Made by a program: the position numbers and the translations under genes. From assembly GCA_016929695.1 (NCBI GenBank), contig JAFGII010000001.1, positions 10,629 to 74,628 of the forward strand: a DNA stretch of 64,000 nt, read 5' to 3'. The DNA is from Ignavibacteria bacterium (GTDB lineage: Bacteria; Bacteroidota; Ignavibacteria; Tepidaquicellales; Tepidaquicellaceae). Positions 8,377 to 31,813 of the stretch are shown piece by piece. The notes under the pieces are model-generated. The model saw nothing but the letters and a program-made list of their open reading frames with translations, was not told where the DNA came from and searched no databases. The first letter of the stretch is position 1. Every line of letters begins with the position of its first letter.

Positions 8377-11300
8377 TTATTTTAATTTTACTATTTTTTG
8401 TATGGAACTGTTTGTGAACCCGCCGTCAGCGGTCTTGATTATTATTTTATATAAATACACTCCGTTTGCAATTGCATCGCCGTCCGCATCTCTGCCATCC
8501 CATTCTATTATAACATTCTTATCGAGTAAATTGTTTCGGGAAATTTCTTTTATTAATTTTCCGCCGACTGTGTAAATTTTGATCTCTGCGGATAGAGGAG
8601 AATCAAAATTATGCTGAAAAATGAAACTTGTATTTTCTTTGAAAGGATTAGGATAATTAGTGACATTATTAACGAATAAAGCAGTATTGTTTTTCACTTG
8701 AAATATAATTTCAGTTTCGCTGGGGTTGTTGTATGTGTCCCACGCTTTAACTTTTAGAGTATATTTGCCGTCTATAAGGTTTTGTAAGGGATATTCAAGC
8801 GTTCCGTATTGATATCCTGAAGTCGTATTGTAATATTGAGTAAGGTCTAATTTATTATTTTCTTCATCATTGATTATCCCGTCAATTTTATGACCTGTAG
8901 TGCCTGTCAAGTTGATTCCGCTTTCATCATAGAAATCTGCAATTATCTTTGTGTCCTGATTAACTAAATCGCCGGAACGGAAGTTGCGGGTATCCATAAA
9001 TAATGTTATTTCCGGACCCGTGGTATCAATGGCGGCATTGCTGTCTATACCGTTGATTACAAATCTTTTATTATATCCCGAACCCTGATTAATCTGGTCT
9101 TTGAAATATGCAAGAATTTTTCCGCTGCCGCTTCCGTATGATATATCCTTCGGTACAATAAATTCAATGTGCCATTTTCCGTTGCTTATATTGGTTTTCC
9201 CGCTGAATATCTTACCTCCGTCAAGGGTGAATATGAAATGTACGGAAAAATCAATAATATCAATTTTCTTATCTACATCGAATACTTTAAGGTCCATCTC
9301 ACCGTTGAAATCACTCCAGAATGTGGAGTCTGGTCTTAGTATGCTTCCTGATATTTTTATTTTTTGTAATGCTTTTATATAAGCAGTATCAGTATATGGA
9401 GTATTATTTATCGAATCAATCCGTGTAAAAAATTGGGGTATGCTTATGCGCAATGCCGGTTCACCGATTAAACAGAATTTAGCGTCATTATGGGAAAAAT
9501 TAGGAATCAGGTTTTTTGTTAAGTACATTGCGTTGCCGAAACGAATGGGCAGATTTAATGTGTCTTTCCTAAACATAAAAATCTCCCAGAGTTTATTATT
9601 AAAGATTGCATTTGGAGCGCTGTAAACGGGTCTGACGGATGAAACTACCGATATAGCGCCCTTATCTTTAATTGATACAAGTTCTTCACCTGCACTTATT
9701 AGGAAAGGGTCATCCCATCTTGAAAGGTCACAACTTGCTATGGTAAGCAGTGGATATTTATTTTTGTTCGTTAATTGCGGAATACTCTCATCCCGTACAA
9801 ATACGTGCTCATGTGCCCATAAATCAGTACTTCCGTGTCCTACGTAGTTGATAACTAATCTGCCGTCATTCCAGCCCTTTATAATATCAACATTTGCACC
9901 CGGTTTTCTCCTGCCCTGGGGAGTAATAACGGTCGGGTATGTAACTATGTATATTTTTTCCTTTTCGAAATCTTTTGGAGTAAATATTTCTGCGATTACT
10001 TCACACTGGTCTGTATGCATGCTCCCTTCTTCACCGTTAGGAGAAGATGTTGTCCATCCGTCATCGGCTACATACATAAGTTTTTTCTTCCATGAAGCGT
10101 TTGTTATAGAATTTTCGTAATCAATTATTTTATCAACGGCAATATTGGCTTCATTTATACTGTTTATGCAAAGTCTGCCTGTAGCAAAATCGGGAACTGC
10201 GGGTTCAGGTTCATTATTGTTTTCATTAATATCAGCAAGGAAATCATCGCTCGGATAACTGTAGATTTCATTAATATCCTCAGTTGACCTTTGTACAGTC
10301 GGCAAATAATTCTTCACGGAGAAATTGTATATGTTTTTGAAATCATAACTTCCGTCACCGAAGAACAGAATGTAAACAGGGGGTTCCTGCCAGTTAATAT
10401 ATGCATGCTTAATAAAATTTCTGATTGCGACCGGGTCAAGTACACCACAGGAAAATTCATTGTAAATCTGATTTACATCCACGACCAGCGTATTCAGTTT
10501 GTTTATACCGGGAGTTTCACGATACGCCTTCAATCTGTTTGCGGCTGATATAAATTCGGTAGGGGTAATTATTATATAACTTGCACCCTGAGTTATTCCT
10601 CTTAAATTCTGATTTGGTATTTTTCCGGGAGTTAAATTTGGTGTTTTATAGTTTTCTCCGGAAACTGAAATATATCTTTGTGGATTATTATATTCAATAT
10701 TGTCCTGAAACCTCAGAACTCCTCCGGAAAAAGATATTGGATTGATTATACTTACGTTGTAATTGTCCGTAACATTAAAAACTTTTATCCCCGATGCGGT
10801 ATAGGGAGATACTACATATTCAACTGTTGTATTTGTATCCGGTGATGTGAACATCAGATAGTTGTTCTGTACGCTGTTAAAACTTCTCCTGTAATGGATT
10901 TCATAAAAGTCATAATTACCTTTTACATTCGGCTGATTATACTGTGCCGGGAGTGATAATTTTAAATTTATTGAAGAAAATCCAGAATTAAGTGCATAAT
11001 ATTCTTCCACTAAATAGGATCTGAAATGAGAAAAATCACCTGACACAGGATATACGGAATAAAACTTTAAAAATGAAGAATTGTCATCTTTCAACTGGGA
11101 ATATGCGGATACGCTTGATGAATTGCCGAATCTCAACAGTAATCTAATATCGGAACCTTGTATATATCCCGGTAATTGTTTGGTGAAAGTGAATCCTTCG
11201 TTATAACTTATGTTCTGACTCAGCCATAAAGTGCCAGTAGAACCCAGATTTAATATTTCGGGTTTTTCGAAAAACTTATCATAAAAATAGTATAAAGGTT

Positions 11301-20715: not shown

Positions 20716-20849
20716 ATTTATTTTTATGTTTTACTACAATCTAAAAAAGATTAACATTAAATTGAATGATAAAAAAGGGGAGTTGATTATTTTTTTTTAT
20801 TTCTCCGCGATATTCCGCTTATCCGTTTGTTCCGCGTTCGACTGAAAAA

Positions 20850-22007
20850 TTACTTTCTTATCAAAAAATACAAAGCTACCAAAAAAGCACCTGCCGCGGA
20901 AAAAATAAACATCACCTGCGGACTGAAATTATACCAGAGCAAACCGCCTGCAAAACTTGCCAGCATCAGAGAAATACTGTTGAATGCCGTGTATGTCCCA
21001 ATTGCAGTTGCGGTTTCGCTTTTCGGGACGATGTTCGAAATCCACGCTTTCGAAATTCCCTCCGTTCCCGCCGCATATAATCCGTAAACTGCGAATACTA
21101 TTAAAATCAGAACAATGTTATCGGCAAATGCGATCAGCAGATAAGCAGCGGCAAAAAATAATAAACCGATAATAAAAGTTTTTTTCAGTCCGATTTTATC
21201 CGCAATAATTCCGAATGGAAATGAACTCAACGCATATATCAGATTATAAAAAATATAAATAACGATTAAATACAAATCCGAGTAGCCTTTATACTTCAGC
21301 ATAAGAAGAAGGAATACATCCGAACTGTTGAAAAAAGCAAATGCAAGAAATCCAGCGACGGATTTTTTATATTCAGTTCCGCTTCTTTTGAAATAATAGA
21401 GAAACTCCTTGAATGAATTTCCGCTGAATGTATTGTCCTGCAGAATCTTTTTTTCTTTGATCAAAAAAGTAAATGCAATGCTGATAATTCCCGGAATAAA
21501 GGCGAGATAAAATAAGGTCACGTAATTTTCAGGATAAAAATACAAATAAATCAGTGCAAGTCCCGGACCAAGTACAGCACCGAAAGTATCCAGACTTCTG
21601 TGGAAACCAAATACTTTTCCTTTATTTTCGGAAGTCGTTTCATCGGATAGGATTGCATCTCTCGCACCCGTACGTATTCCTTTCCCGAACCTGTCAAGCG
21701 TTCTGAATGTGAACACCCAGTAAATATTCGTAAAGAGTGCAATCAGCGGTTTTGAAACCGCACTCAGTGCATATCCAGCCCTTACGAAAGGCAGGCGCAT
21801 ACCTTTTTTATCGGAAAGATTTCCGAAATATCCCTTGCTCAATCCCGAAACCGCTTCCGCAATTCCCTCCAGAATTCCGATTGCAACAATTGAAAATCCG
21901 ATACTCTGCAAATAGAGAGGCATCACAGGATACAGCATTTCGCTTGCTATGTCAGTGAAGAAACTTACGAAGGAAAGCAGTATAATTGTTTTAGTAAGAT
22001 ATTTCAA
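20850..22007 (-). CDS. MFS transporter
   Basis: 385-aa ORF with about 12 hydrophobic segments and an MFS loop motif (LSDKKGMR, DRFGKGIR). Confidence 0.75.
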   Translation of the reverse strand: MKYLTKTIILLSFVSFFTDIASEMLYPVMPLYLQSIGFSIVAIGILEGIAEAVSGLSKGYFGNLSDKKGMRLPFVRAGYALSAVSKPLIALFTNIYWVFTFRTLDRFGKGIRTGARDAILSDETTSENKGKVFGFHRSLDTFGAVLGPGLALIYLYFYPENYVTLFYLAFIPGIISIAFTFLIKEKKILQDNTFSGNSFKEFLYYFKRSGTEYKKSVAGFLAFAFFNSSDVFLLLMLKYKGYSDLYLIVIYIFYNLIYALSSFPFGIIADKIGLKKTFIIGLLFFAAAYLLIAFADNIVLILIVFAVYGLYAAGTEGISKAWISNIVPKSETATAIGTYTAFNSISLMLASFAGGLLWYNFSPQVMFIFSAAGAFLVALYFLIRK

Positions 22008-22433
22008 TTACTTTCTCACAATTAATACACTGCAATGAGCATTCTCACTTACTTTATCGCTGACGTGTCCGAGGAAATTACCCCATAATCCGGAAATGCC
22101 TTTGCTTCCCATTGCTATTAAATTAAAACTATTTTTTTCTGCATATTCAATAATAGTTTTTGCAGGATTTCCGGGTTTGGATATTATTTTTATTTCCTTT
22201 CCGAATTCATTTCCGATTGTATGAACTTCTTTTGTAAGTTTTTTAAAATATGAATTTGCCAAAGAATTTTCTTCTTCTATTTCGTCAATCGTTTCAGGAA
22301 AGTGTGGCAATGAGCTTTTTACCCAAATTGCCGTTATTTCCGAATTAAGTTGTTTGGCAAGTTTTGCCGCTTCCTTTAAAGCAAGTTTTGCCCCTTCTGA
22401 ACCGTCGAACCCTACGAGGATTTTTTTATACAT
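22008..22433 (-). CDS. Universal stress protein (UspA family)
   Basis: MYKKILVGFDGS start and C-terminal GSKGISGLWGNFLGHVSDKV...SVLIV. I moved the start to 22433 because AGGAG lies 7 nt upstream and the longer ORF overlaps the antiporter gene. Confidence 0.8.
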   Translation of the reverse strand: MYKKILVGFDGSEGAKLALKEAAKLAKQLNSEITAIWVKSSLPHFPETIDEIEEENSLANSYFKKLTKEVHTIGNEFGKEIKIISKPGNPAKTIIEYAEKNSFNLIAMGSKGISGLWGNFLGHVSDKVSENAHCSVLIVRK

Positions 22434-22443
22434 TTTTATTCTC

Positions 22444-23634
22444 CTATTTGAAAGATTTATTATTTTTCTTCTCAGATTTTTTGAGTAACCTTCCCCACGC
22501 AATCATTGTGGATTCGGAAGGCTGAAAAAATCTTTGTGCAATCATTGTTGGAATTATAGCACTCAGGATAACAACCGTTACAAGAATAGTGTATTGTGTT
22601 CCATCAATTATACCGTTGTTAAGTCCGAATAATGCCGATATAGTACCGAATGTCAGTCCTGTTGCCATAAGCAGGGAAGTATAATTTGCTTCACTGTTTC
22701 GCATCTTAAAATACCGAGCTAAAGGATACACTCCGATAATTTTAGTTCCGATTTTGATAAAAAGCAATATTAAAATTACTCCAACTGAAATCCATAATGC
22801 AGAGAGCGAAACATACAGCCCTGCTTTGATAAAATAAAACGGAGTGAACATTGCAAATGCAATCGTTCGCATTCTGTTGACCAGAGTTTTGTCTTTTACA
22901 AACACACCTGCAACGACAAGTCCAATCAGATATGCCGGAAGAACCGCCTCGCTTTTTGCCATAGTTGCAAGTCCGCCTAACATAAATAATACAAATAAAA
23001 TGAATTTAACTTCCGGCTCGCTTACTCTTTTAGAACCCATTCTGGCAATAATGAATTTTGTCATTCTTGGCATAAAAATCATCATTATTGTTAATGCAGA
23101 AATAAAAATGAGCATCCAGAAGTTGAATTCTGCAAACAAAATCCCGAGTGCGAGAACGGTTCCTAAATCGGTTATGAAACAAGCGGCGAGAATCATCTTT
23201 CCCATATCCGTGCTGTTGAGTCCTTTTTCTATCATAACAGCATATACAACCGCAACTGAAGTCGTGGATAAAGCGATTCCCGCTATCTGTGCCTGCTGAA
23301 GAGACCATCCGAAAATGTATTGAGTTATCATCCAGATTACGATGAAAGGAAGTATGAAAGATAAAATTCCAATACTGAAACTTGCTTTGAAATTTGCTTT
23401 CAGAGATGCAGGGTCAATTTCTGCTCCGGCAAGGAATGTAAGAACTCCGCTGCCCAGCATTGCAAGAAAATTAATCCATTCTGTGGTCTGATGCAGTCCG
23501 AGAAAATTTCCTGCTATTACACCGATTAGTATTTCAATTAAGGCAACGGAAATTCCAACGCGAATAGATATAAGGCTTGCAATAAAAGCAAGCCCCATCC
23601 ATATTGCCGCTATAATCCAGACATTATCTAACAT
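22444..23634 (-). CDS. Cation:proton antiporter (CPA family, Na+/H+ exchanger type)
   Basis: 396-aa ORF with about 11-12 TM segments and sequence style typical of the Na_H_Exchanger family (IASLISIRVGISVALIEILIGVIAG). Confidence 0.8.
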   Translation of the reverse strand: MLDNVWIIAAIWMGLAFIASLISIRVGISVALIEILIGVIAGNFLGLHQTTEWINFLAMLGSGVLTFLAGAEIDPASLKANFKASFSIGILSFILPFIVIWMITQYIFGWSLQQAQIAGIALSTTSVAVVYAVMIEKGLNSTDMGKMILAACFITDLGTVLALGILFAEFNFWMLIFISALTIMMIFMPRMTKFIIARMGSKRVSEPEVKFILFVLFMLGGLATMAKSEAVLPAYLIGLVVAGVFVKDKTLVNRMRTIAFAMFTPFYFIKAGLYVSLSALWISVGVILILLFIKIGTKIIGVYPLARYFKMRNSEANYTSLLMATGLTFGTISALFGLNNGIIDGTQYTILVTVVILSAIIPTMIAQRFFQPSESTMIAWGRLLKKSEKKNNKSFK

Positions 23635-23646
23635 TACTTTTAATGT

Positions 23647-24927
23647 TCATACATTTTTAAAAGCATTTTTGCCTGCAAAAACAGCCTGTTTGCCGAGCAT
23701 TTTTTCTATTTTTATTAAACGATTGAATTTTGATATCCTTTCGCTTCTACAGCCAGAACCTGTTTTTAAATGACCTGCGTTAACGGCAACGGTTAAATCT
23801 GCAATGGTTGTATCCTCGGTTTCGCCTGAACGGTGCGAAACGAAGCAGTTATAATTATTTTTGTATGCAAGTCTTATTGTTTCAAGTGTTTCCGTTACTG
23901 TTCCTATTTGATTTAATTTAATTAAAATCGAATTTGCAATTCCTTTTTTAATTCCTTCCGACAGTATAACGGGATTTGTGCAGAATATATCATCACCTAC
24001 AATTTCTATTTTATCTCCGAGTTCATCGGTCAGAAGTTTCCATCCGTTCCAGTCATTTTCGGCCATTCCGTCTTCAAGCAAAACAATAGGGTATTTATGT
24101 ACCCAGTCACACCAGTGTTTGACCATCGCCACGGAAGTTCTCTTTGATTTATCGGATTTGAAATTCACATACTGTCCGTCTTCCCACATTTCACTTGCCG
24201 CGGGGTCGAGACAAATGGATATATCATCACCGGGTTTATATCCCGCTTGAACTATTGCTTCCATAATCACTTCCATTGCTTCTTCGTTGGATTTCAGATT
24301 CGGAGCGAATCCGCCTTCATCTCCAACTCCCGTGTTGTATCCTTTTTTTATCAGTATTTTTTTCAGAGTATGAAATGTTTCTATTCCCATTCTTATTGCT
24401 TCCTGAAAATTCGGAGCATTGTGAGGTGCAATCATAAATTCCTGAAAATCAACATTATTATCCGAGTGTTTCCCGCCGTTTATTATATTCATGCACGGAA
24501 CCGGGAGTATATTGGCGGAAGGACCTCCTAAATATTTAAAAAGAGGCAAATTGCAGTATTGCGCCGCTGCTTTTGCCGCAGCGATTGATACACCAAGAAT
24601 CGCATTTGCACCAAGTCTGGATTTATTCTCCGTACCGTCTAATTCAATCATTTTCAAATCAAGATGCTTCTGTTCGGTTATTTCAAGACCTTGTATTGCG
24701 GGTGCTATTATTCTGTTTACATTTTCAATTGCTTTTAACACACCTTTTCCTCCGTACCTTTTTATATCCCCGTCTCTTAATTCCATTGCTTCTTTCTCGC
24801 CCGTGGACGCACCGGACGGTACAAGCGCGTTTGCCGTAATCCCGTTTTCAAGAGTTAATTCGACTTCAACCGTTGGATTTCCTCTCGAATCCAGAACTTC
24901 CATTGCTTCTGTTTTTGAAATTTTCAT
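23647..24927 (-). CDS. eno: Enolase (phosphopyruvate hydratase)
   Basis: 426-aa [27 protein letters not shown] and SHRSGETED motifs. Confidence 0.95.
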
Positions 24928-25211
24928 TTTGATTTTGTTTTTATTGTTTTTAAATATTTTTGTTTTAATTCGTCTTTTACATCTTCGGAATAGAACAGAT
25001 TTACAGCCACATTATCATACAACTTCGGGATTTTATTTTTTTTCGTCTTACCTTCCCGGTTTAAATCAATTTCGAAATGTCTGAATATTTCCTTTTCACT
25101 GTAGAAAATATTACCGCAGTGATGACATCTGTATTGTCTCCCACATAAATTTTCTATTGCATATTTGATGCCGTTTCTGGTTCTGAATTTTGCTTTGATT
25201 TGCGGAATCAT
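24924..25211 (-). CDS. Small basic protein with a C2H2-like zinc finger
   Basis: 95-aa ORF containing [20 protein letters not shown]. Its TGA overlaps the eno ATG (ATGA). It starts 6 nt after the preceding ORF. Confidence 0.5.
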
Positions 25212-25217
25212 ATAATT

Positions 25218-25613
25218 TCAGATTGATTTAATTGCATTTATGAGTTTGTTTATGTCATTTCTGTATGTATTATTGTCAATTTCCATTTTCCCGTATCTCT
25301 GTTCCAAAAAACCGGGGAGCAATTCTTCTGCATAAAGTTCTAAAGTTGTCTTCTTTGACTTTATTAATTGCGATTGAGTCAATGTTAATCTGGTCAGCGA
25401 ATATTTATTGACTATTTCCTTTAATGCTTTCTTTATCCTGAAAATTTTTGAAATAAGTTCTGCATCTTTTTGAATTCCGGAATCCGCTATTATTCCGTAA
25501 GTAGAACTTTCAACTCTGTTCATAAGCAGGCATAATAATTCGTCAATACTTTTTTCGATTACATAAAGCCCTGATGATACGGTTCGCTTATGTTGTTTCT
25601 TTAATTTAATCAT
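25218..25613 (-). CDS. Hypothetical helical protein coupled to the dynamin-like GTPase
   Basis: 131-aa ORF. Its start overlaps the dynamin-like stop by 8 nt (ATGATTAA). Charged, helical composition with no recognisable motif. Confidence 0.45.
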   Translation of the reverse strand: MIKLKKQHKRTVSSGLYVIEKSIDELLCLLMNRVESSTYGIIADSGIQKDAELISKIFRIKKALKEIVNKYSLTRLTLTQSQLIKSKKTTLELYAEELLPGFLEQRYGKMEIDNNTYRNDINKLINAIKSI

Positions 25614-27366
25614 ATTTTATAAGTTGATTTTTTATATCCTTAAGTAAATCAAAATTATTCTGAATGAGTTTTGAATTACTTTCATACAGGGATTCTTCGG
25701 CGATTTTCATATTCCGGACTTTGCTTATAATATCTTTTATTTTTAAAATCGTTCCTTTAATGGAGTCAGAAAACTTAATATTGAAATTTCTGAAATATTT
25801 ATCGAGTCTTCTTGCCATGCTGTCATATATATACGATAAATTGTTGTCGAGTACAATATCGGTTTTTTTGATTTGTTTTTTTGTCATAAGTTTGTTGTGA
25901 TACCTCCTGCCCAGTATTCTCGCTAAATGCGTAGTATCTATTTCCAGCATCAGTTTATAATCGTATGTTATGTATTCAAAGAATTTTGGAAAATTAAAAT
26001 CATAATCAATTTCAACCTCATTCAAACTGATATTAAACGATTCCGATACTGCCTGATATATAGAATTTATTGTTCTGTTGTATTCCTTAAGATATTTATC
26101 GGTTAATTCTTTTGTTAACTCAATTACCTCAAATTCAGTTGATTTTCTGATTTCTTCAAGTCCTGATTTCAAAAGGAGTGAAAATTTACTCTCTATGTTT
26201 TTTCTGAAATCAGTTTTTCGTGATTTTATGTTATTTAAGGAATATTCTTTTATTTTCTTTTTGATTTTACGGTTTAAATCATTTCCGTTGTCAATGATTT
26301 TGCGCTGAATTTTAAGATAGATATTGTTTAAGTCTTTCTTAATCCTCTCGTATATTTCATCTTCGCCGGTTAGTATTTGATTCAGTAACTCATTCAGTCT
26401 GTTATTTCTTTTCTCGAGTTCTTCTAAGGGAATTGCATAGGATTTCTTTTCGAGTTCGAATTCCGTTTCGAGTCTGCGAATCAGATTTCCGAATTGCCTC
26501 GTGACAGATTTGTAAAGTAAAATTTTGCTTCTTGTTTCAAAATATTCAGCAAGGAAACGCTCGAAAACAGGGACTCTGCTTTTTTCTGTTTCTTTTTTAT
26601 TACCTTTGATTTTTGATGCAAGTGCCTGACTGGATGAAACGGGAAATAATTTGAATTCATATCCGGGATATCTTCTGGAAATAATATTCTTTGTAAACTC
26701 AATAATTTCCGCCAGTTCCTTTTCTTTCAGATAGTCTATTTTATTAAGCACGATAAATACATTGTCCGAAACTTTGAAGATTTCATTAAGGAATTCGACT
26801 TCGATTTCGGATAATACGGGGTCGGGAGATGTTACCAAAATCGCTGCATCAATTTTCGGAATGTATTCGTAAGTCAGGAGTGTGTTGCTCGTAAATGAGG
26901 ACCCTATCCCCGGAGTATCAATAAAAGTAATTCCTTTTTTCAGCAAATCATTCGGATAACCGACTTCGGCGTATTTTACATTCTTTGTGTTTTCCGGATT
27001 ATGCATTTCCGAAATGTATAATGTTAATTTATCGGAACTAACGTTTTTGATACTTCCGTCGTGGAAAAATATTTGTGCGGAAAACTTTTTTTTGTATTTT
27101 ACTACTGTGATTACAGAGGTGAGGGGAAGTACTGCGGAGGGCAATATGTCTTCACCTAATATACTGTTAATAAATGACGATTTACCTCTTTTAAACTGTC
27201 CTAAGACAGCAAAATTAACAGAATTTATTTCTAATTTATTTAATAAAAAATTTATGTTCTCTATATCATTTTCGCGCAAATAAGAATAAAATTCTTTATT
27301 AAATCTAATAAGATTTGCTTTTAGTTTTTCAGAATCACTTGTGGTATGTGTGTTAATTTGATTCAT
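25606..27366 (-). CDS. Bacterial dynamin-like GTPase
   Basis: 586-aa ORF. G1 GQFKRGKS, G3 DTPGIGS and G4 LNKID, followed by a long charged helical stalk-like region. No obvious hydrophobic paddle. Confidence 0.8.
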   Translation of the reverse strand: MNQINTHTTSDSEKLKANLIRFNKEFYSYLRENDIENINFLLNKLEINSVNFAVLGQFKRGKSSFINSILGEDILPSAVLPLTSVITVVKYKKKFSAQIFFHDGSIKNVSSDKLTLYISEMHNPENTKNVKYAEVGYPNDLLKKGITFIDTPGIGSSFTSNTLLTYEYIPKIDAAILVTSPDPVLSEIEVEFLNEIFKVSDNVFIVLNKIDYLKEKELAEIIEFTKNIISRRYPGYEFKLFPVSSSQALASKIKGNKKETEKSRVPVFERFLAEYFETRSKILLYKSVTRQFGNLIRRLETEFELEKKSYAIPLEELEKRNNRLNELLNQILTGEDEIYERIKKDLNNIYLKIQRKIIDNGNDLNRKIKKKIKEYSLNNIKSRKTDFRKNIESKFSLLLKSGLEEIRKSTEFEVIELTKELTDKYLKEYNRTINSIYQAVSESFNISLNEVEIDYDFNFPKFFEYITYDYKLMLEIDTTHLARILGRRYHNKLMTKKQIKKTDIVLDNNLSYIYDSMARRLDKYFRNFNIKFSDSIKGTILKIKDIISKVRNMKIAEESLYESNSKLIQNNFDLLKDIKNQLIKYD

Positions 27367-27373
27367 ATAAAAA

Positions 27374-27409
27374 ATAACTCCTGCCTAATAGTTTTTAAGC
27401 AGGAGTTAT
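27374..27409 (-). promoter_or_regulatory. Perfect 11-bp hairpin sequestering the SD of the dynamin-like gene (also terminator-like)
   Basis: Minus strand reads ataactcctgc-(14 nt)-gcaggagttat-tttttat-ATG. AGGAG lies inside the 3' arm. The hairpin plus U-tract also fits an intrinsic terminator. Confidence 0.45.
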
Positions 27410-27493
27410 CAGGTTTTTAACACCGGTTTTGGTGAACTCCATCACCTTTAAATTAATTTAATATAAAAATTGCGATATTGCAATTCACTTAAT

Positions 27494-28610: not shown

Positions 28611-29204
28611 TCAGTATTCCTTCCCGTATCCCGCGAAAATTCCTAGTCCTCCGAACGATTCTCCGCTAGACAAAACTATTTTACCCAGCAGTCCAAAATA
28701 ATTCCCGTAAAGTTTCACTTTTAAATCCAGACCGCCTTTAAAAAACATTTTCCCGTCTTTTGTCTTAACTTCGCTTGTTTTATTTTCCGGTTTGATTACG
28801 CTATGATATGTGCCGCCCGCATACAGGTCCAGCCTGATGCGTTTAAAGTCCGCCGTAAACCTCGGGCAGATGTTCACATCAAAAAATTCTACAGTTGCAG
28901 AAAGCAGAGCAGTATTCCCCGGTTCACCCACCACCACATCGCCGAGTATTCCGTAATAGTCCGCTCCCGTTCTGACTCCGAATGATAAAGAGGGAGTTCT
29001 TTTGTTTTTAATAAAATCAAAGTCCGCCGCAACGCATAGCGAATTCACAAAAATCAGCGTTGACGCATCAATCTGAAATCCTTTAAAATCCGCTTCCGCA
29101 TAAAAATTTGTTTCCGAATTATCCTGCTGAGCAAAACCGCTTAACTGAAAAATACAGCAGGAAATAACTGCCAGATAAATTGTTTTAACGTATGTATTGA
29201 CCAT
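28611..29204 (-). CDS. Small OM beta-barrel-like protein, paralogue A
   Basis: Start moved to MVNTYVK (29204), ahead of a signal peptide. Shares FKGFQ(I/V)DA, NYFGLLGK and GESFG.(L/I)GIFAGYGK(E/K)Y with the upstream paralogue. Confidence 0.55.
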   Translation of the reverse strand: MVNTYVKTIYLAVISCCIFQLSGFAQQDNSETNFYAEADFKGFQIDASTLIFVNSLCVAADFDFIKNKRTPSLSFGVRTGADYYGILGDVVVGEPGNTALLSATVEFFDVNICPRFTADFKRIRLDLYAGGTYHSVIKPENKTSEVKTKDGKMFFKGGLDLKVKLYGNYFGLLGKIVLSSGESFGGLGIFAGYGKEY

Positions 29205-29230
29205 TTTACATTTATAATTTATAATTGATT

Positions 29231-29791
29231 TCAGTACTTTTTCCCGTATCCCGCGAAAATCCCGATACACCCGAAAGATTCTCCCGTTGACAGGTCAACC
29301 TTCCCGAGCAAGCCGAAATAATTTTTATACAATTTCACTTTCAAATCAAATCCGCCTTTGATGAAAAATGTATTGTTTTTTAATAACTCTTCGCCCGACG
29401 GAGTTCTAGTTTCCGATACATGATGATATGTTCCACCGACGTTTGCATCTATTCTCATAGTATCGTTATCGGTAGTTAACCTCGGATAAAAATTGAAATC
29501 AAAGAATCTAACCCAGTTTGAATTTCCTCCCACGTCGAATTTTGTATATTTATCGCAGTATTCCGCTCCGAGTCTCACCCCGGATGATATTGCAGGGTCA
29601 TTGAAATTTTTGATTAAATCAAAATCAAATGCTGTCCCGAAAGAATTAATTAGAATCAGAGATGCCGCATCCACCTGAAATCCCTTGAAGTCGGGCTCTG
29701 CGTACAATGTTTTTGATAGTGTATCTTTTTGGGCGAAAGAAGAAGATTTCATAATAAGAATTGCAAAAAACAAAAAGATGATTTTCTTCAT
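29231..29791 (-). CDS. Small OM beta-barrel-like protein, paralogue B
   Basis: 186-aa ORF with a signal peptide. Collinear similarity to paralogue A, including a near-identical C-terminus. Confidence 0.55.
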   Translation of the reverse strand: MKKIIFLFFAILIMKSSSFAQKDTLSKTLYAEPDFKGFQVDAASLILINSFGTAFDFDLIKNFNDPAISSGVRLGAEYCDKYTKFDVGGNSNWVRFFDFNFYPRLTTDNDTMRIDANVGGTYHHVSETRTPSGEELLKNNTFFIKGGFDLKVKLYKNYFGLLGKVDLSTGESFGCIGIFAGYGKKY

Positions 29792-29842: not shown

Positions 29843-30154
29843 TTATTTATTTAATGTATTAAAACGCTCAAATTCTTTTTCAATATCAGACTCACATTCC
29901 GCACATATAAAATCTCCTTTGAAGAAAGGTTTGCCCATTTCTTTGCGATAATTATCATCGCTTAAGTCAAAAATTCTGTTGACAAATAATTCTGTTCCGG
30001 GGCTGACATCCCTTCCGCATTCATTACAAATTTCTGTTTTCTGATTTTTTTCTTTTATGTTTACTCTTAAAATAAAAATATAAAATATTATAACATACAT
30101 AATAATAAATTCATAAAGAAAATAATAATCATTTCTATTATAATTGTAATTCAT
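29843..30154 (-). CDS. Hypothetical membrane-anchored zinc-ribbon protein
   Basis: 103-aa ORF. One hydrophobic helix, then CNECG...(34 aa)...CAECE. The real start may be the internal MYVIIFY. Divergent from the R-M pair. Confidence 0.35.
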   Translation of the reverse strand: MNYNYNRNDYYFLYEFIIMYVIIFYIFILRVNIKEKNQKTEICNECGRDVSPGTELFVNRIFDLSDDNYRKEMGKPFFKGDFICAECESDIEKEFERFNTLNK

Positions 30155-30188: not shown

Positions 30189-30821
30189 GTGGAAAAATCA
30201 ATAGTCGATTTATTTAACGATGGAAAAATAGTAAACAAAATTAAAAAGCGTTTACCTTATTTGTTTCAAATGGCAGAATTAGAAAGTTCCAGATATGGTA
30301 AAATCGGAATGGAAGTAGGCTCATTAAGAGAGAAGGTAATAATTGCTTTATTGATTTACAAATTCGGTGAAAATAATGTAAATATAAATATTCCGATTAC
30401 AAAAGCAGAAATCGATGTAATTGTTTTCGGTAATCCAATATCAATTAAAACTATATCAGGTAAAAATCCCGGTGGAATTAAATTGATTTGGACGGTTGAT
30501 GCAAATTCTGCTTTGGATTTTATGAATAATTATATTCCGATTTGCGATATGATATTGGTAAATATCATCTGGAATGATGAAGGCTCGTTTTATTATATTC
30601 CGATAGAAGTCCAAAGGGAAACATTTAATAAATTATGTAAAGAGAAATATATTAAACTTCCAAAACCCGGTACAAATCCCAGAGGAGTTGAAATGTCTAA
30701 AGATGCTATTATAGCATTAACAAATCATAAATTAATTAAACGAATACCTATCGAGTGGATAAAATCGGAAATAGAATATCGCCCTTATGAAAGATGGGTA
30801 GAATTATGGAGTGAAGAATAA
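30189..30821 (+). CDS. Putative type II restriction endonuclease
   Basis: 210-aa ORF (GTG start), translationally coupled (TAATG) to the DNA methyltransferase. Candidate PD-(D/E)xK element EIDV-x10-SIK. No other family assignment possible by eye. Confidence 0.5.
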   Translation: MEKSIVDLFNDGKIVNKIKKRLPYLFQMAELESSRYGKIGMEVGSLREKVIIALLIYKFGENNVNINIPITKAEIDVIVFGNPISIKTISGKNPGGIKLIWTVDANSALDFMNNYIPICDMILVNIIWNDEGSFYYIPIEVQRETFNKLCKEKYIKLPKPGTNPRGVEMSKDAIIALTNHKLIKRIPIEWIKSEIEYRPYERWVELWSEE

Positions 30822-31813
30822 TGAACAACAAAAGAAAAAATGGAACAACAACCAGTTCGTTTGGGACAAGTGGCAGAATTAATCATGATTCCAGCAAATT
30901 TTATAATTCAAGATTGTATTCATCCGTAAATCTTAAATATTTAGAAGAAACAAAAGAAAATGAACTACCAAAAGAATATGTAAATAAGATAATTTGCGGT
31001 TCATCCGAGAATATGAAAGAGATTCCTGATAATTCTATTCATCTGATGATAACATCACCACCATATAATGTTACGAAAGAATATGACAAGGATTTAACTT
31101 TGGAAGAATATTTGGAACTGTTGAAAAATGTGTTTATAGAGACATACAGAGTATTAGTTAATGGTGGGCGTGCTTGTATTAATTTGGCAAATTTGGGTAG
31201 AAAGCCATACATACCTTTATCTGATTATATTTCACTACTGATGATTGATATTGGATTTAATATGCGAGGAGAAATATTATGGAATAAAGCAGCGAGTGCA
31301 AGCCCATCAACTGCTTGGGGAAGCTGGTTATCAGCCGCTAATCCAATTTTGAGGGATATTCACGAATACATTCTAATATTCTCAAAAGGGGATATGAGCA
31401 GAAATGCAAAGGGAAGGGAAAACACTATCACTAAAGAGCAATTTATGCTGTGGACGAAATCAATATGGACAATGAATGCAGAATCAGCACGCAAAATCGG
31501 ACATCCTGCTCCATTCCCTGAAGAATTACCTTTAAGGTTAATTCATTTATATTCTTTTAAAAACGATATTATCCTTGACCCATTCATTGGCAGCGGTACA
31601 ACGGCGGTTGCAGCTATCAACGCAGATAGAAAATTCATCGGTTATGATATTAGTAAGGAATATGTTACGCTTGCAAATAAAAGATTAAGTAAATATCTGA
31701 CACAGCATAAAATCTCATTTGAGAATCGGAAAGAAGAAAAAGTTGTTTATGCATCTTCTGATAAAGCAAAATTTGAAGTGGCGGATAAGAAGAAAACGAA
31801 AAAGAAAAAGTAA
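30821..31813 (+). CDS. Beta-class DNA amino-methyltransferase (N4-cytosine or N6-adenine)
   Basis: 330-aa ORF. Motif IV ITSPPYNV precedes motif I LDPFIGSGTTAVAA (beta-class order). Lys-rich C-terminal tail. Confidence 0.88.
   Translation: MNNKRKNGTTTSSFGTSGRINHDSSKFYNSRLYSSVNLKYLEETKENELPKEYVNKIICGSSENMKEIPDNSIHLMITSPPYNVTKEYDKDLTLEEYLELLKNVFIETYRVLVNGGRACINLANLGRKPYIPLSDYISLLMIDIGFNMRGEILWNKAASASPSTAWGSWLSAANPILRDIHEYILIFSKGDMSRNAKGRENTITKEQFMLWTKSIWTMNAESARKIGHPAPFPEELPLRLIHLYSFKNDIILDPFIGSGTTAVAAINADRKFIGYDISKEYVTLANKRLSKYLTQHKISFENRKEEKVVYASSDKAKFEVADKKKTKKKK

Follow-up and report, generated by a model that had tools for sequence, protein, structure and literature searches.

The gene considered here encodes a 586-aa dynamin-like protein (DLP) and lies in a 64,000-nucleotide stretch of DNA from an Ignavibacteria bacterium (GenBank assembly GCA_016929695.1, contig JAFGII010000001.1, positions 10,629 to 74,628 of the forward strand). 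The whole stretch is referred to below as the window, and positions are given in its coordinates. DLP is preceded by a fluoride riboswitch and followed by genes for two small proteins, p131 and p95, and for an enolase (eno). We propose, with a probability of roughly 0.7, that DLP is a fluoride-induced membrane-remodelling or repair GTPase which, with accessory proteins, heads a riboswitch-controlled operon. Judging from the sequence, control of this operon by the fluoride riboswitch is almost certain, and the DLP clade is very probably a genuine member of the fluoride regulon. A preliminary description of the locus, which had missed the riboswitch at 27393..27455, had proposed that the GTPase and its two partners form a module of defence or envelope stress.

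The riboswitch leader and the operon behind it

In an Rfam scan of the window, the fluoride riboswitch family RF01734 was matched over its full length (1-64) at 50.2 bits (gathering score 34, E=6.1e-11), and 26 nt lie between the end of the aptamer and the DLP start codon. A custom covariance model (CM), built from 17 riboswitches of DLP loci, scored the same element at 78.6 bits; neither Rfam nor the custom CM found an RF01734 match in the 64-kb window other than the one before DLP. The P1 and P3 helices and the pseudoknot GGAGU/ACUCC are all present in the aptamer. The leader comprises two features:

27393..27455, minus strand: fluoride riboswitch aptamer (crcB motif, RF01734), from the Rfam scan
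27367..27410, minus strand: expression platform, a terminator with a T-run, from a terminator scan, the predicted fold and reading of the sequence

The terminator scan identified a 16-bp stem (27410..27373) and, behind it, a T-run that reaches the ATG. Its 5' arm (GAUAACUCCU...) reads as the pseudoknot strand of the aptamer itself, which pairs with GGAGU in the P1 loop, and its 3' arm contains AGGAG about 11 nt before the AUG. The minimum free energy of the leader is -31.7 kcal/mol (z=-5.7), a value equalled by none of 200 shuffles, and the corresponding fold consists of P1, P3 and the terminator. An alignment of 76 riboswitches from DLP loci showed 96.8% of cells paired, with 10 of 13 pairs changed on both sides. 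The pseudoknot, which had been left out of the CM used for this alignment, was paired in 100% of the sequences and displayed compensatory double changes at 4 of its 5 pairs. None of 500 shuffles reached the observed covariation score, and slid controls remained at or below 60% paired.

A layout in which the terminator overlaps the aptamer to give an ON-switch has been described for crcB RNAs (PMC2864571). In the absence of fluoride, the 16-bp terminator would form just ahead of the DLP start codon and bury the AGGAG sequence too. With fluoride, the pseudoknot would retain the 5' arm of the terminator, and RNA polymerase would read through (transcription antitermination). We infer this ON-switch logic from the B. 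cereus crcB riboswitch. A scan for sigma-70 promoters upstream of the riboswitch gave nothing convincing, and TTGCAA-17-TAAATT is a candidate picked by eye.

Seven genes follow the riboswitch in the order DLP, p131, p95, eno, Na+/H+ antiporter, universal stress protein (Usp) and major facilitator superfamily (MFS) transporter, each identified from its open reading frame (ORF) or domain match as listed:

25606..27366, minus strand: DLP, dynamin-like GTPase, 586 aa; ORF and translation, Pfam Dynamin_N
25218..25613, minus strand: p131, all-helical, 131 aa; ORF whose start overlaps the DLP stop by 8 nt
24924..25211, minus strand: p95, C2H2-like zinc finger, 95 aa; ORF and homologue alignment
23647..24927, minus strand: eno, enolase, 426 aa; ORF, Enolase_N/C domains in syntenic loci
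22444..23634, minus strand: antiporter of the Na+/H+ exchanger family; ORF, Pfam Na_H_Exchanger in syntenic loci
22008..22433, minus strand: Usp; ORF, likely start ATG at 22433
20850..22007, minus strand: MFS transporter; Pfam MFS_1 at 8e-43, abutting Usp directly

The junctions of the first four genes read as the preliminary description had given them: the 8-nt overlap between the DLP stop and the p131 start has the sequence ATGATTAA, a 6-nt gap separates p131 from p95, and the TGA of p95 overlaps the ATG of eno as ATGA (4 nt). The antiporter begins 12 nt after eno. Since all seven genes are joined by overlaps or by gaps of at most 12 nt, no space is left among them for a promoter or a terminator. 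The MFS gene is the final one that can be confidently assigned to the operon; in the 134-nt gap between it and purL (20716-20849), the scan detected no terminator. The longest ORF of Usp extends to 22502, and the ATG at 22433 was preferred by comparison with the 141-aa Usp of locus L001. The view that the cassette sits in an AT-rich accessory stretch was not supported, as its GC content of 0.28-0.33 is barely under the window mean of roughly 0.35 and the neighbourhood is syntenic in relatives with 42-56% DLP identity.

Linkage of riboswitch and GTPase across genomes

Homologues of DLP of about 585 aa are numerous, with 676 matches in a protein search. A profile scan of one genome per GTDB species confirmed at least 535 relatives among the 600 matching stretches listed, of which the best 80 were taken; this genome scan used the family alignment as query, a single-protein query having recovered nothing. 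When the custom CM was run on 90 DLP loci, a riboswitch was found within 300 nt upstream of DLP in 62 of them and at the operon head, farther upstream on the same strand, in another 15 (for example in the order antiporter-Usp-DLP), so that RF01734 lies upstream of DLP, in either position, in 77 of the 90 loci. Of the 13 loci without a match, at least five are cut at the 5' end or start inside a longer operon. At the curated threshold of Rfam, RF01734 was detected in 13 of the 14 homologous loci first tested, and Rfam also confirmed 11 of the 13 weakest matches of the custom CM, four archaeal loci among them.

Many bacterial phyla and four archaeal lineages are represented among the loci. Archaeal metagenome-assembled genomes (MAGs) assigned to Woesearchaeota, Methanosarcinales, Micrarchaeia and Nanobdellati (L019, L039, L078 and L090) carry a member of the DLP clade with an upstream RF01734 above the gathering score, which indicates that the riboswitch-DLP pair crosses the domain boundary. 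Two fluoride riboswitches in tandem, spaced by about 60-130 nt, lie ahead of the antiporter (or antiporter-Usp-DLP) in L005 from Thermoanaerobacter (2111-2181 and 2243-2313) and in L082 from a deltaproteobacterial MAG (8693-8768 and 8834-8909, minus strand).

This linkage bears on the idea that the riboswitch serves eno and the antiporter, and that the DLP cassette was inserted between them with no fluoride role of its own. Loci of the Thermoanaerobacter and Thermodesulfovibrionales types agree with it in having the riboswitch before the antiporter and Usp, with DLP last. The 62 loci with the riboswitch immediately upstream of DLP, many of them without eno or an antiporter nearby and four of them archaeal, argue against it, as do L018 and L035, in which the antiporter and DLP each have their own riboswitch. 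We consider such hitch-hiking the least probable of all the explanations weighed here.

All ORFs within about 5 kb of DLP in 91 loci were clustered without prior assumptions. The most frequent neighbour was the Na+/H+ antiporter (23/91 loci), followed by MFS (17/91), Usp (15/91), enolase (14/91), DUF190 (10/91), DUF6062 (10/91) and CrcB (8/91); HAD-like and metallophosphatase genes were also recurrent. This neighbour set matches the published fluoride-riboswitch regulon, in which enolase is a known associated gene and Na+/H+ antiporters form the second most common class (PMC11139923). The regulon as listed in the reviews and papers searched comprises exporters, antiporters, pyrophosphatase, HAD, enolase, formate hydrogen lyase and others, and no dynamin or GTPase (PMC11139923, PMC7266159, PMC2864571); the words 'dynamin' and 'GTPase' have 0 occurrences in these three papers. 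The riboswitch and most of the operon genes are of already-known kinds; in the searchable literature we found no paper that reports the near-constant presence of the DLP clade in the fluoride regulon or that describes the p131 family. Genes for a His_Phos_1 phosphatase, an MFS transporter and a PAP2 lipid-phosphate phosphatase come after enolase in some Ignavibacteria-type loci (L009:8740-11276 and L095:741-3205); these neighbours could tie fluoride-sensitive envelope-lipid phosphatases to the cluster.

The same data speak to the defence role that had been suggested for the cassette, namely a variant of the Eleos/LeoABC anti-phage system composed of one DLP and two novel partners. Weak PADLOC matches to LeoA (7e-15) and LeoBC (3.5e-8) and a restriction-modification (R-M)-like pair about 3 kb away can be cited for it. 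Both PADLOC matches, however, fall on the same single protein and reflect generic dynamin homology, p131 and p95 have none, and the 64 kb contain neither LeoB/C nor a second DLP. Moreover, the cassette is under predicted fluoride-riboswitch control and co-transcription with eno and transporters, the locus is syntenic in relatives and not island-like, and the recurrent neighbours are fluoride-regulon genes and not defence genes. With the riboswitch linked to DLP in 77 of 90 loci and the R-M pair unrelated, a defence module is extremely unlikely.

The R-M-like pair itself consists of ORFs of 210 aa and 330 aa (30189-31813, plus strand), the latter taken for a methyltransferase in the preliminary description. 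It is separate from the fluoride operon, and no equivalent R-M genes were seen in the gene tables of the syntenic loci. Beside it lies a 103-aa CxxC...CxxC ORF (29843-30154, minus strand). Closer to DLP, the region 28611-29791 (minus strand) contains two overlapping paralogous ORFs of 219 and 186 aa with signal-peptide-like N-termini and a shared C-terminus, GESFG.(L/I)GIFAGYGK(E/K)Y. ORFs of 186 and 282 aa without a Pfam match also occur upstream of DLP in L001, which suggests that this region represents conserved synteny and not an accessory island.

The GTPase and its small partner proteins

The preliminary description had recognised a dynamin-like GTPase by its G1, G3 and G4 motifs, and this assignment was borne out. 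GQFKRGKS (G1), DTPG (G3) and NKID (G4) are present in the translation, and their columns are invariant in a 52-sequence family alignment. The same alignment revealed the clade-specific invariant residues E120, N123, P124 and N126, which form an E-x2-N-P-x-N motif. The Pfam Dynamin_N domain was matched with 96.7 bits against a cut-off of 27 (E=2e-27), and the family profile matched the bacterial dynamin-like protein (BDLP) of Nostoc (2j68, 4e-50), Cj-DLP1/2 of Campylobacter and IniA. An AlphaFold2 model (pLDDT, the predicted local distance difference test, 84) comprises a G domain and long helices at residues 265-310, 314-378, 384-444 and 487-583; its top full-length Foldseek matches were BDLP 2j69 (3.7e-20) and IniA 6j72 (4.9e-20). 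None of the three proteins DLP, p131 and p95 reached the cut-off of any NCBIfam family. The window copy of DLP is annotated, through an identical protein, as 'dynamin family protein [Ignavibacteria bacterium]'.

The statement that DLP lacks a hydrophobic paddle holds insofar as no segment resembling a transmembrane (TM) helix was found, the highest 19-residue Kyte-Doolittle window (1.34) lying within the G domain. It had overlooked that the predicted stalk tip (residues ~445-478) is an aromatic-rich loop: modelled with low confidence and flanked by the invariant F444 and the nearly invariant P486, it falls in a stretch (440-490) where 10 of 51 residues are aromatic. We take this tip to be closer to the lipid-interacting loop of IniA than to the paddle of BDLP. 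A paired or fused BDLP locus was considered and rejected: there is no second DLP ORF in the 64-kb window, and a second intact DLP-like ORF occurs nearby in only 3 of 90 loci (L043, L064 and L065). By sequence and predicted fold, DLP is a solo BDLP/IniA-type GTPase of a widespread clade of about 585 aa. In L043 (6699-8272), from a Kuenenia MAG, a DLP-like ORF of 275 aa, consisting of the stalk only and lacking a G domain, has its own fluoride riboswitch and is followed by a p131-like gene.

The gene for p131 stands directly after DLP in all seven Ignavibacteria-type loci, with junctions ranging from an 8-nt overlap to no gap. The identity of p131 is 30-56% across four loci and that of p95 is 45-64% in relatives, and this conservation at the protein level indicates that both are real genes and not chance ORFs. 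The possibility, raised in the preliminary description, that the small ORFs are absent beside related GTPases or show no coding conservation was thus checked, and both are conserved as proteins in relatives. Loci retrieved through p95 alone contained the trio DLP-p131-p95 in 4 of 4 cases, with eno next in all three that extend far enough, so that in Ignavibacteria-type genomes the two small proteins are indeed conserved, tightly coupled partners. In L095, the riboswitch, p95, DLP and p131 form one unit and eno is divergent on the other strand. The trio therefore co-occurs independently of eno, as the preliminary description had proposed to examine, and constitutes a module of its own that is separable from it. 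Enolase being a canonical gene of the fluoride regulon, the association of the trio with eno is more than incidental.

Relatives of p131 numbered six in a word-indexed search and 166 representative clusters in an exhaustive search with a hidden Markov model (HMM). Members of the family are all about 130-145 aa long, match over their full length and share the motif NHxR...IEK...W..L.D..S..L..YG; those examined are unnamed or 'hypothetical', except for one evidently spurious source label. The orphan status ascribed to p131 was upheld, given that no Pfam match was obtained for the window copy, two distant members or 48 family members, and that neither a PDB sequence match nor a significant Foldseek match (best E=0.59) was found. 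The notion that p131 is a detached BDLP stalk was rejected (hhalign probability 7.8%). Distant p131 proteins occur in DLP/fluoride operons of Sumerlaeota, Poribacteria, Brocadiaceae/Kuenenia, Cytophagia, Spirochaetia and a Deltaproteobacteria MAG. We infer that p131 is a stoichiometric partner or adaptor of DLP that is translationally coupled to it.

In p95, residues C29, C32 and H45 are invariant in an alignment of 14 homologues; about half of the homologues have a fourth ligand, a Cys at H+4, which the window copy lacks. In the PDB, the p95 profile matched classical C2H2 fingers with its residues ~25-49, and Pfam zf-C2H2_4 was matched at only E=0.07. As the family is confined to Ignavibacteria, Kryptoniota and one Bacteroidetes MAG, p95 is presumably a lineage-specific zinc-finger accessory protein.

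A further recurrent component of the fluoride-riboswitch DLP operons, in 10 loci of the clustering, is a Cys-rich protein of about 220-280 aa, sometimes encoded beside p131 or p95. These Cys-rich or DUF6062-like proteins are located as follows, with Pfam DUF6062 confirmed for two of them (L025:2705-3421 and L089):

L025:2705-4128
L066:3435-4157
L089:3569-4258
L027:6643-7314
L073:6780-7445
L063:571-1455

The Cys-rich ORFs in the gaps beside p95 in L073 and L063 show the DUF6062-type pattern CPxC…GFC…H and are not divergent p131 proteins; the gene order in L073 is DLP, Cys-rich DUF6062-like ORF, p95. Their recurrence suggests that the Cys-rich/DUF6062 proteins are another uncharacterised family of the fluoride regulon. 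In loci of the Nitrospirota/Thermodesulfovibrionales type, a 129-aa Zn-ribbon-HEAT protein is encoded directly after DLP (L013:6688-7098, L014:4083-4469, L030:6656-7036, L033:6650-7033 and L064:6723-7133), often with a HAD-like gene of about 157 aa next, and may be the counterpart of p131/p95 in these lineages. A DUF6062 or Zn-ribbon-HEAT protein occupies the positions equivalent to those of p131/p95 in other phyla.

Possible functions and known systems

Membrane and wall damage and lysis have been reported for bacteria exposed to fluoride (PMC12700350), and the influx of hydrogen fluoride (HF) strains pH homeostasis (PMC11139923). A GTPase of the BDLP/IniA type, together with membrane damage by fluoride and pH stress, makes a membrane maintenance or repair GTPase the most economical reading. 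Upon induction, DLP would be made together with the antiporter, Usp, the MFS transporter and extra enolase. Its aromatic stalk-tip loop would most likely attach it to the cytoplasmic membrane, and its GTP-driven assembly would preserve or repair the membrane during HF influx, acidification and envelope damage, acting alongside the co-induced proton and ion transporters. Envelope stress, the other role considered in the preliminary description, is thus still plausible, the specific stress being fluoride. Membrane maintenance as the actual mechanism of DLP is a tentative proposal, to which we give somewhat less than even odds.

Several points weigh against this reading. The repair role is drawn by analogy with DynA and IniA, and we know of no experiment that ties any BDLP to fluoride. 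DLP has no TM-like paddle, so its membrane binding is predicted only. Outside the Ignavibacteria group, p131 lies within 5 kb of DLP in only 7 of 79 loci and most loci have neither p131 nor p95, which argues that these partners are not universally required. A search of full-text literature found no paper that connects a dynamin or GTPase with crcB or the fluoride riboswitch; this search did not cover Baker et al. 2012 or its supplement, and an earlier mention in a table is possible. Furthermore, a DLP can be a soluble regulator, as RdcA of E. coli demonstrates (PMC6510439).

An RdcA/RdcB-like regulatory GTPase is the main rival explanation, although we consider it unlikely. According to this model, a soluble DLP-p131 complex would dock on a co-induced membrane protein (the antiporter or MFS transporter here, CrcB elsewhere) and switch or organise it according to its GTP state. 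In its favour, the membrane domain of DgcE is the target of RdcA and its non-GTPase partner RdcB (PMC6510439), and p131 is translationally coupled to DLP, as rdcB is operonic with rdcA; the missing TM-like paddle and the fact that transporters are the most constant neighbours of DLP also favour it. On the other hand, DLP resembles CrfC/RdcA weakly and over a short stretch (NCBIfam, 30 bits, residues 39-91), the full-length fold matches the membrane-active BDLP and IniA, no single transporter family is present in most loci (23/91 at best), and p131 is absent from most loci.

Metal fluorides are transition-state analogues for dynamin-family G domains. DLP might accordingly be fluoride-sensitive itself, through trapping of GDP-metal-fluoride, and be overproduced to restore a housekeeping activity, as is the case for enolase and pyrophosphatase; the enolase of the same operon follows such logic (PMC11139923). 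This compensation is very unlikely, given that the strong terminator ahead of DLP should keep the gene OFF when fluoride is absent, that no second DLP of the clade exists in the window or in most loci and hence no basal activity is evident to top up, and that a housekeeping gene is not expected to be riboswitch-gated in about 85% of lineages. Compensation, defence and hitch-hiking all fit the data poorly.

A bolder version of the membrane reading would make the DLP clade and its interchangeable partners (p131, p95, DUF6062 and Zn-ribbon-HEAT proteins) a dedicated and hitherto unrecognised membrane-protection machine of the fluoride response that extends from Firmicutes to DPANN archaea, in which fluoride, besides inducing transcription, could directly lock DLP assembled on the membrane via GDP-Mg/Al-fluoride trapping of the G-domain dimer. 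We regard this version as improbable.

To our knowledge, what bacterial DLPs do physiologically is still in large part unsettled, and few of them have a defined inducing signal. In the present case, an entire DLP clade comes with a defined and cheap inducer, fluoride, a known RNA sensor and conserved co-induced genes, which makes its function directly testable, and cultured carriers of the clade include Thermoanaerobacter, Thermoanaerobacterium, Hippea and Desulfacinum. Descriptions of the fluoride response have so far centred on exporters, pH homeostasis and the replacement of inhibited enzymes; the proposed role would add to it a membrane-remodelling component and the families p131, DUF6062, Zn-ribbon-HEAT and p95, with relevance for engineering fluoride tolerance for organofluorine degradation. 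The locus also illustrates how a 'defence-like' cassette can be reassigned once its 5' leader is inspected.

Among known systems, the BDLP of Nostoc punctiforme (2j68/2j69) and the IniA of Mycobacterium (6j72) share with DLP a dynamin G domain, a long fold-back helical neck/trunk and a tip loop. IniA (~600 aa) is also close to DLP in size and, like DLP, has a tip loop instead of a TM paddle. Identity to either protein in fold alignments is only about 15-19%, and whereas IniA/IniC and Cj-DLP1/2 are paired, DLP is solo here. DLP is gated by a fluoride riboswitch, and such gating of BDLP or IniA is not described in the literature searched. Bacillus subtilis DynA is a bacterial DLP implicated in membrane protection under stress, and this role is the functional analogy that underlies the repair hypothesis. 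DynA is, however, a head-to-tail fusion of two DLPs (~1190 aa), and DLP scores 62 bits against the NCBIfam DynA cut-off of 1600.

The preliminary description had held that one GTPase with two small partners fits no known layout. This stands with respect to paired BDLP and LeoABC loci, to which no match was found, but the E. coli RdcA/RdcB pair (YjdA/YjcZ; RdcA is also known as CrfC) had been overlooked: as here, an operon combines one dynamin-like GTPase with a non-GTPase partner of unknown fold that binds it (PMC6510439). RdcA differs in being ~84 kDa with an unrelated C-terminal half, RdcB is 33 kDa, and the match of DLP to the CrfC model is weak and local. RdcAB is part of the flagellar regulon, and its target is a diguanylate cyclase; it does not act in a fluoride response. 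LeoABC/Eleos likewise contains dynamin-like GTPases with weak HMM similarity to DLP, but it needs LeoA together with LeoB/C, which are further DLPs, whereas a single DLP is present in the 64 kb and its regulation and neighbours are different. The fluoride regulon (RF01734) shares with this operon the aptamer, the terminator-overlap ON-switch, enolase, the Na+/H+ antiporter, Usp and MFS, and with related DLP loci also CrcB, DUF190 and HAD-like genes; what sets the present operon apart is DLP as the first gene behind the riboswitch.

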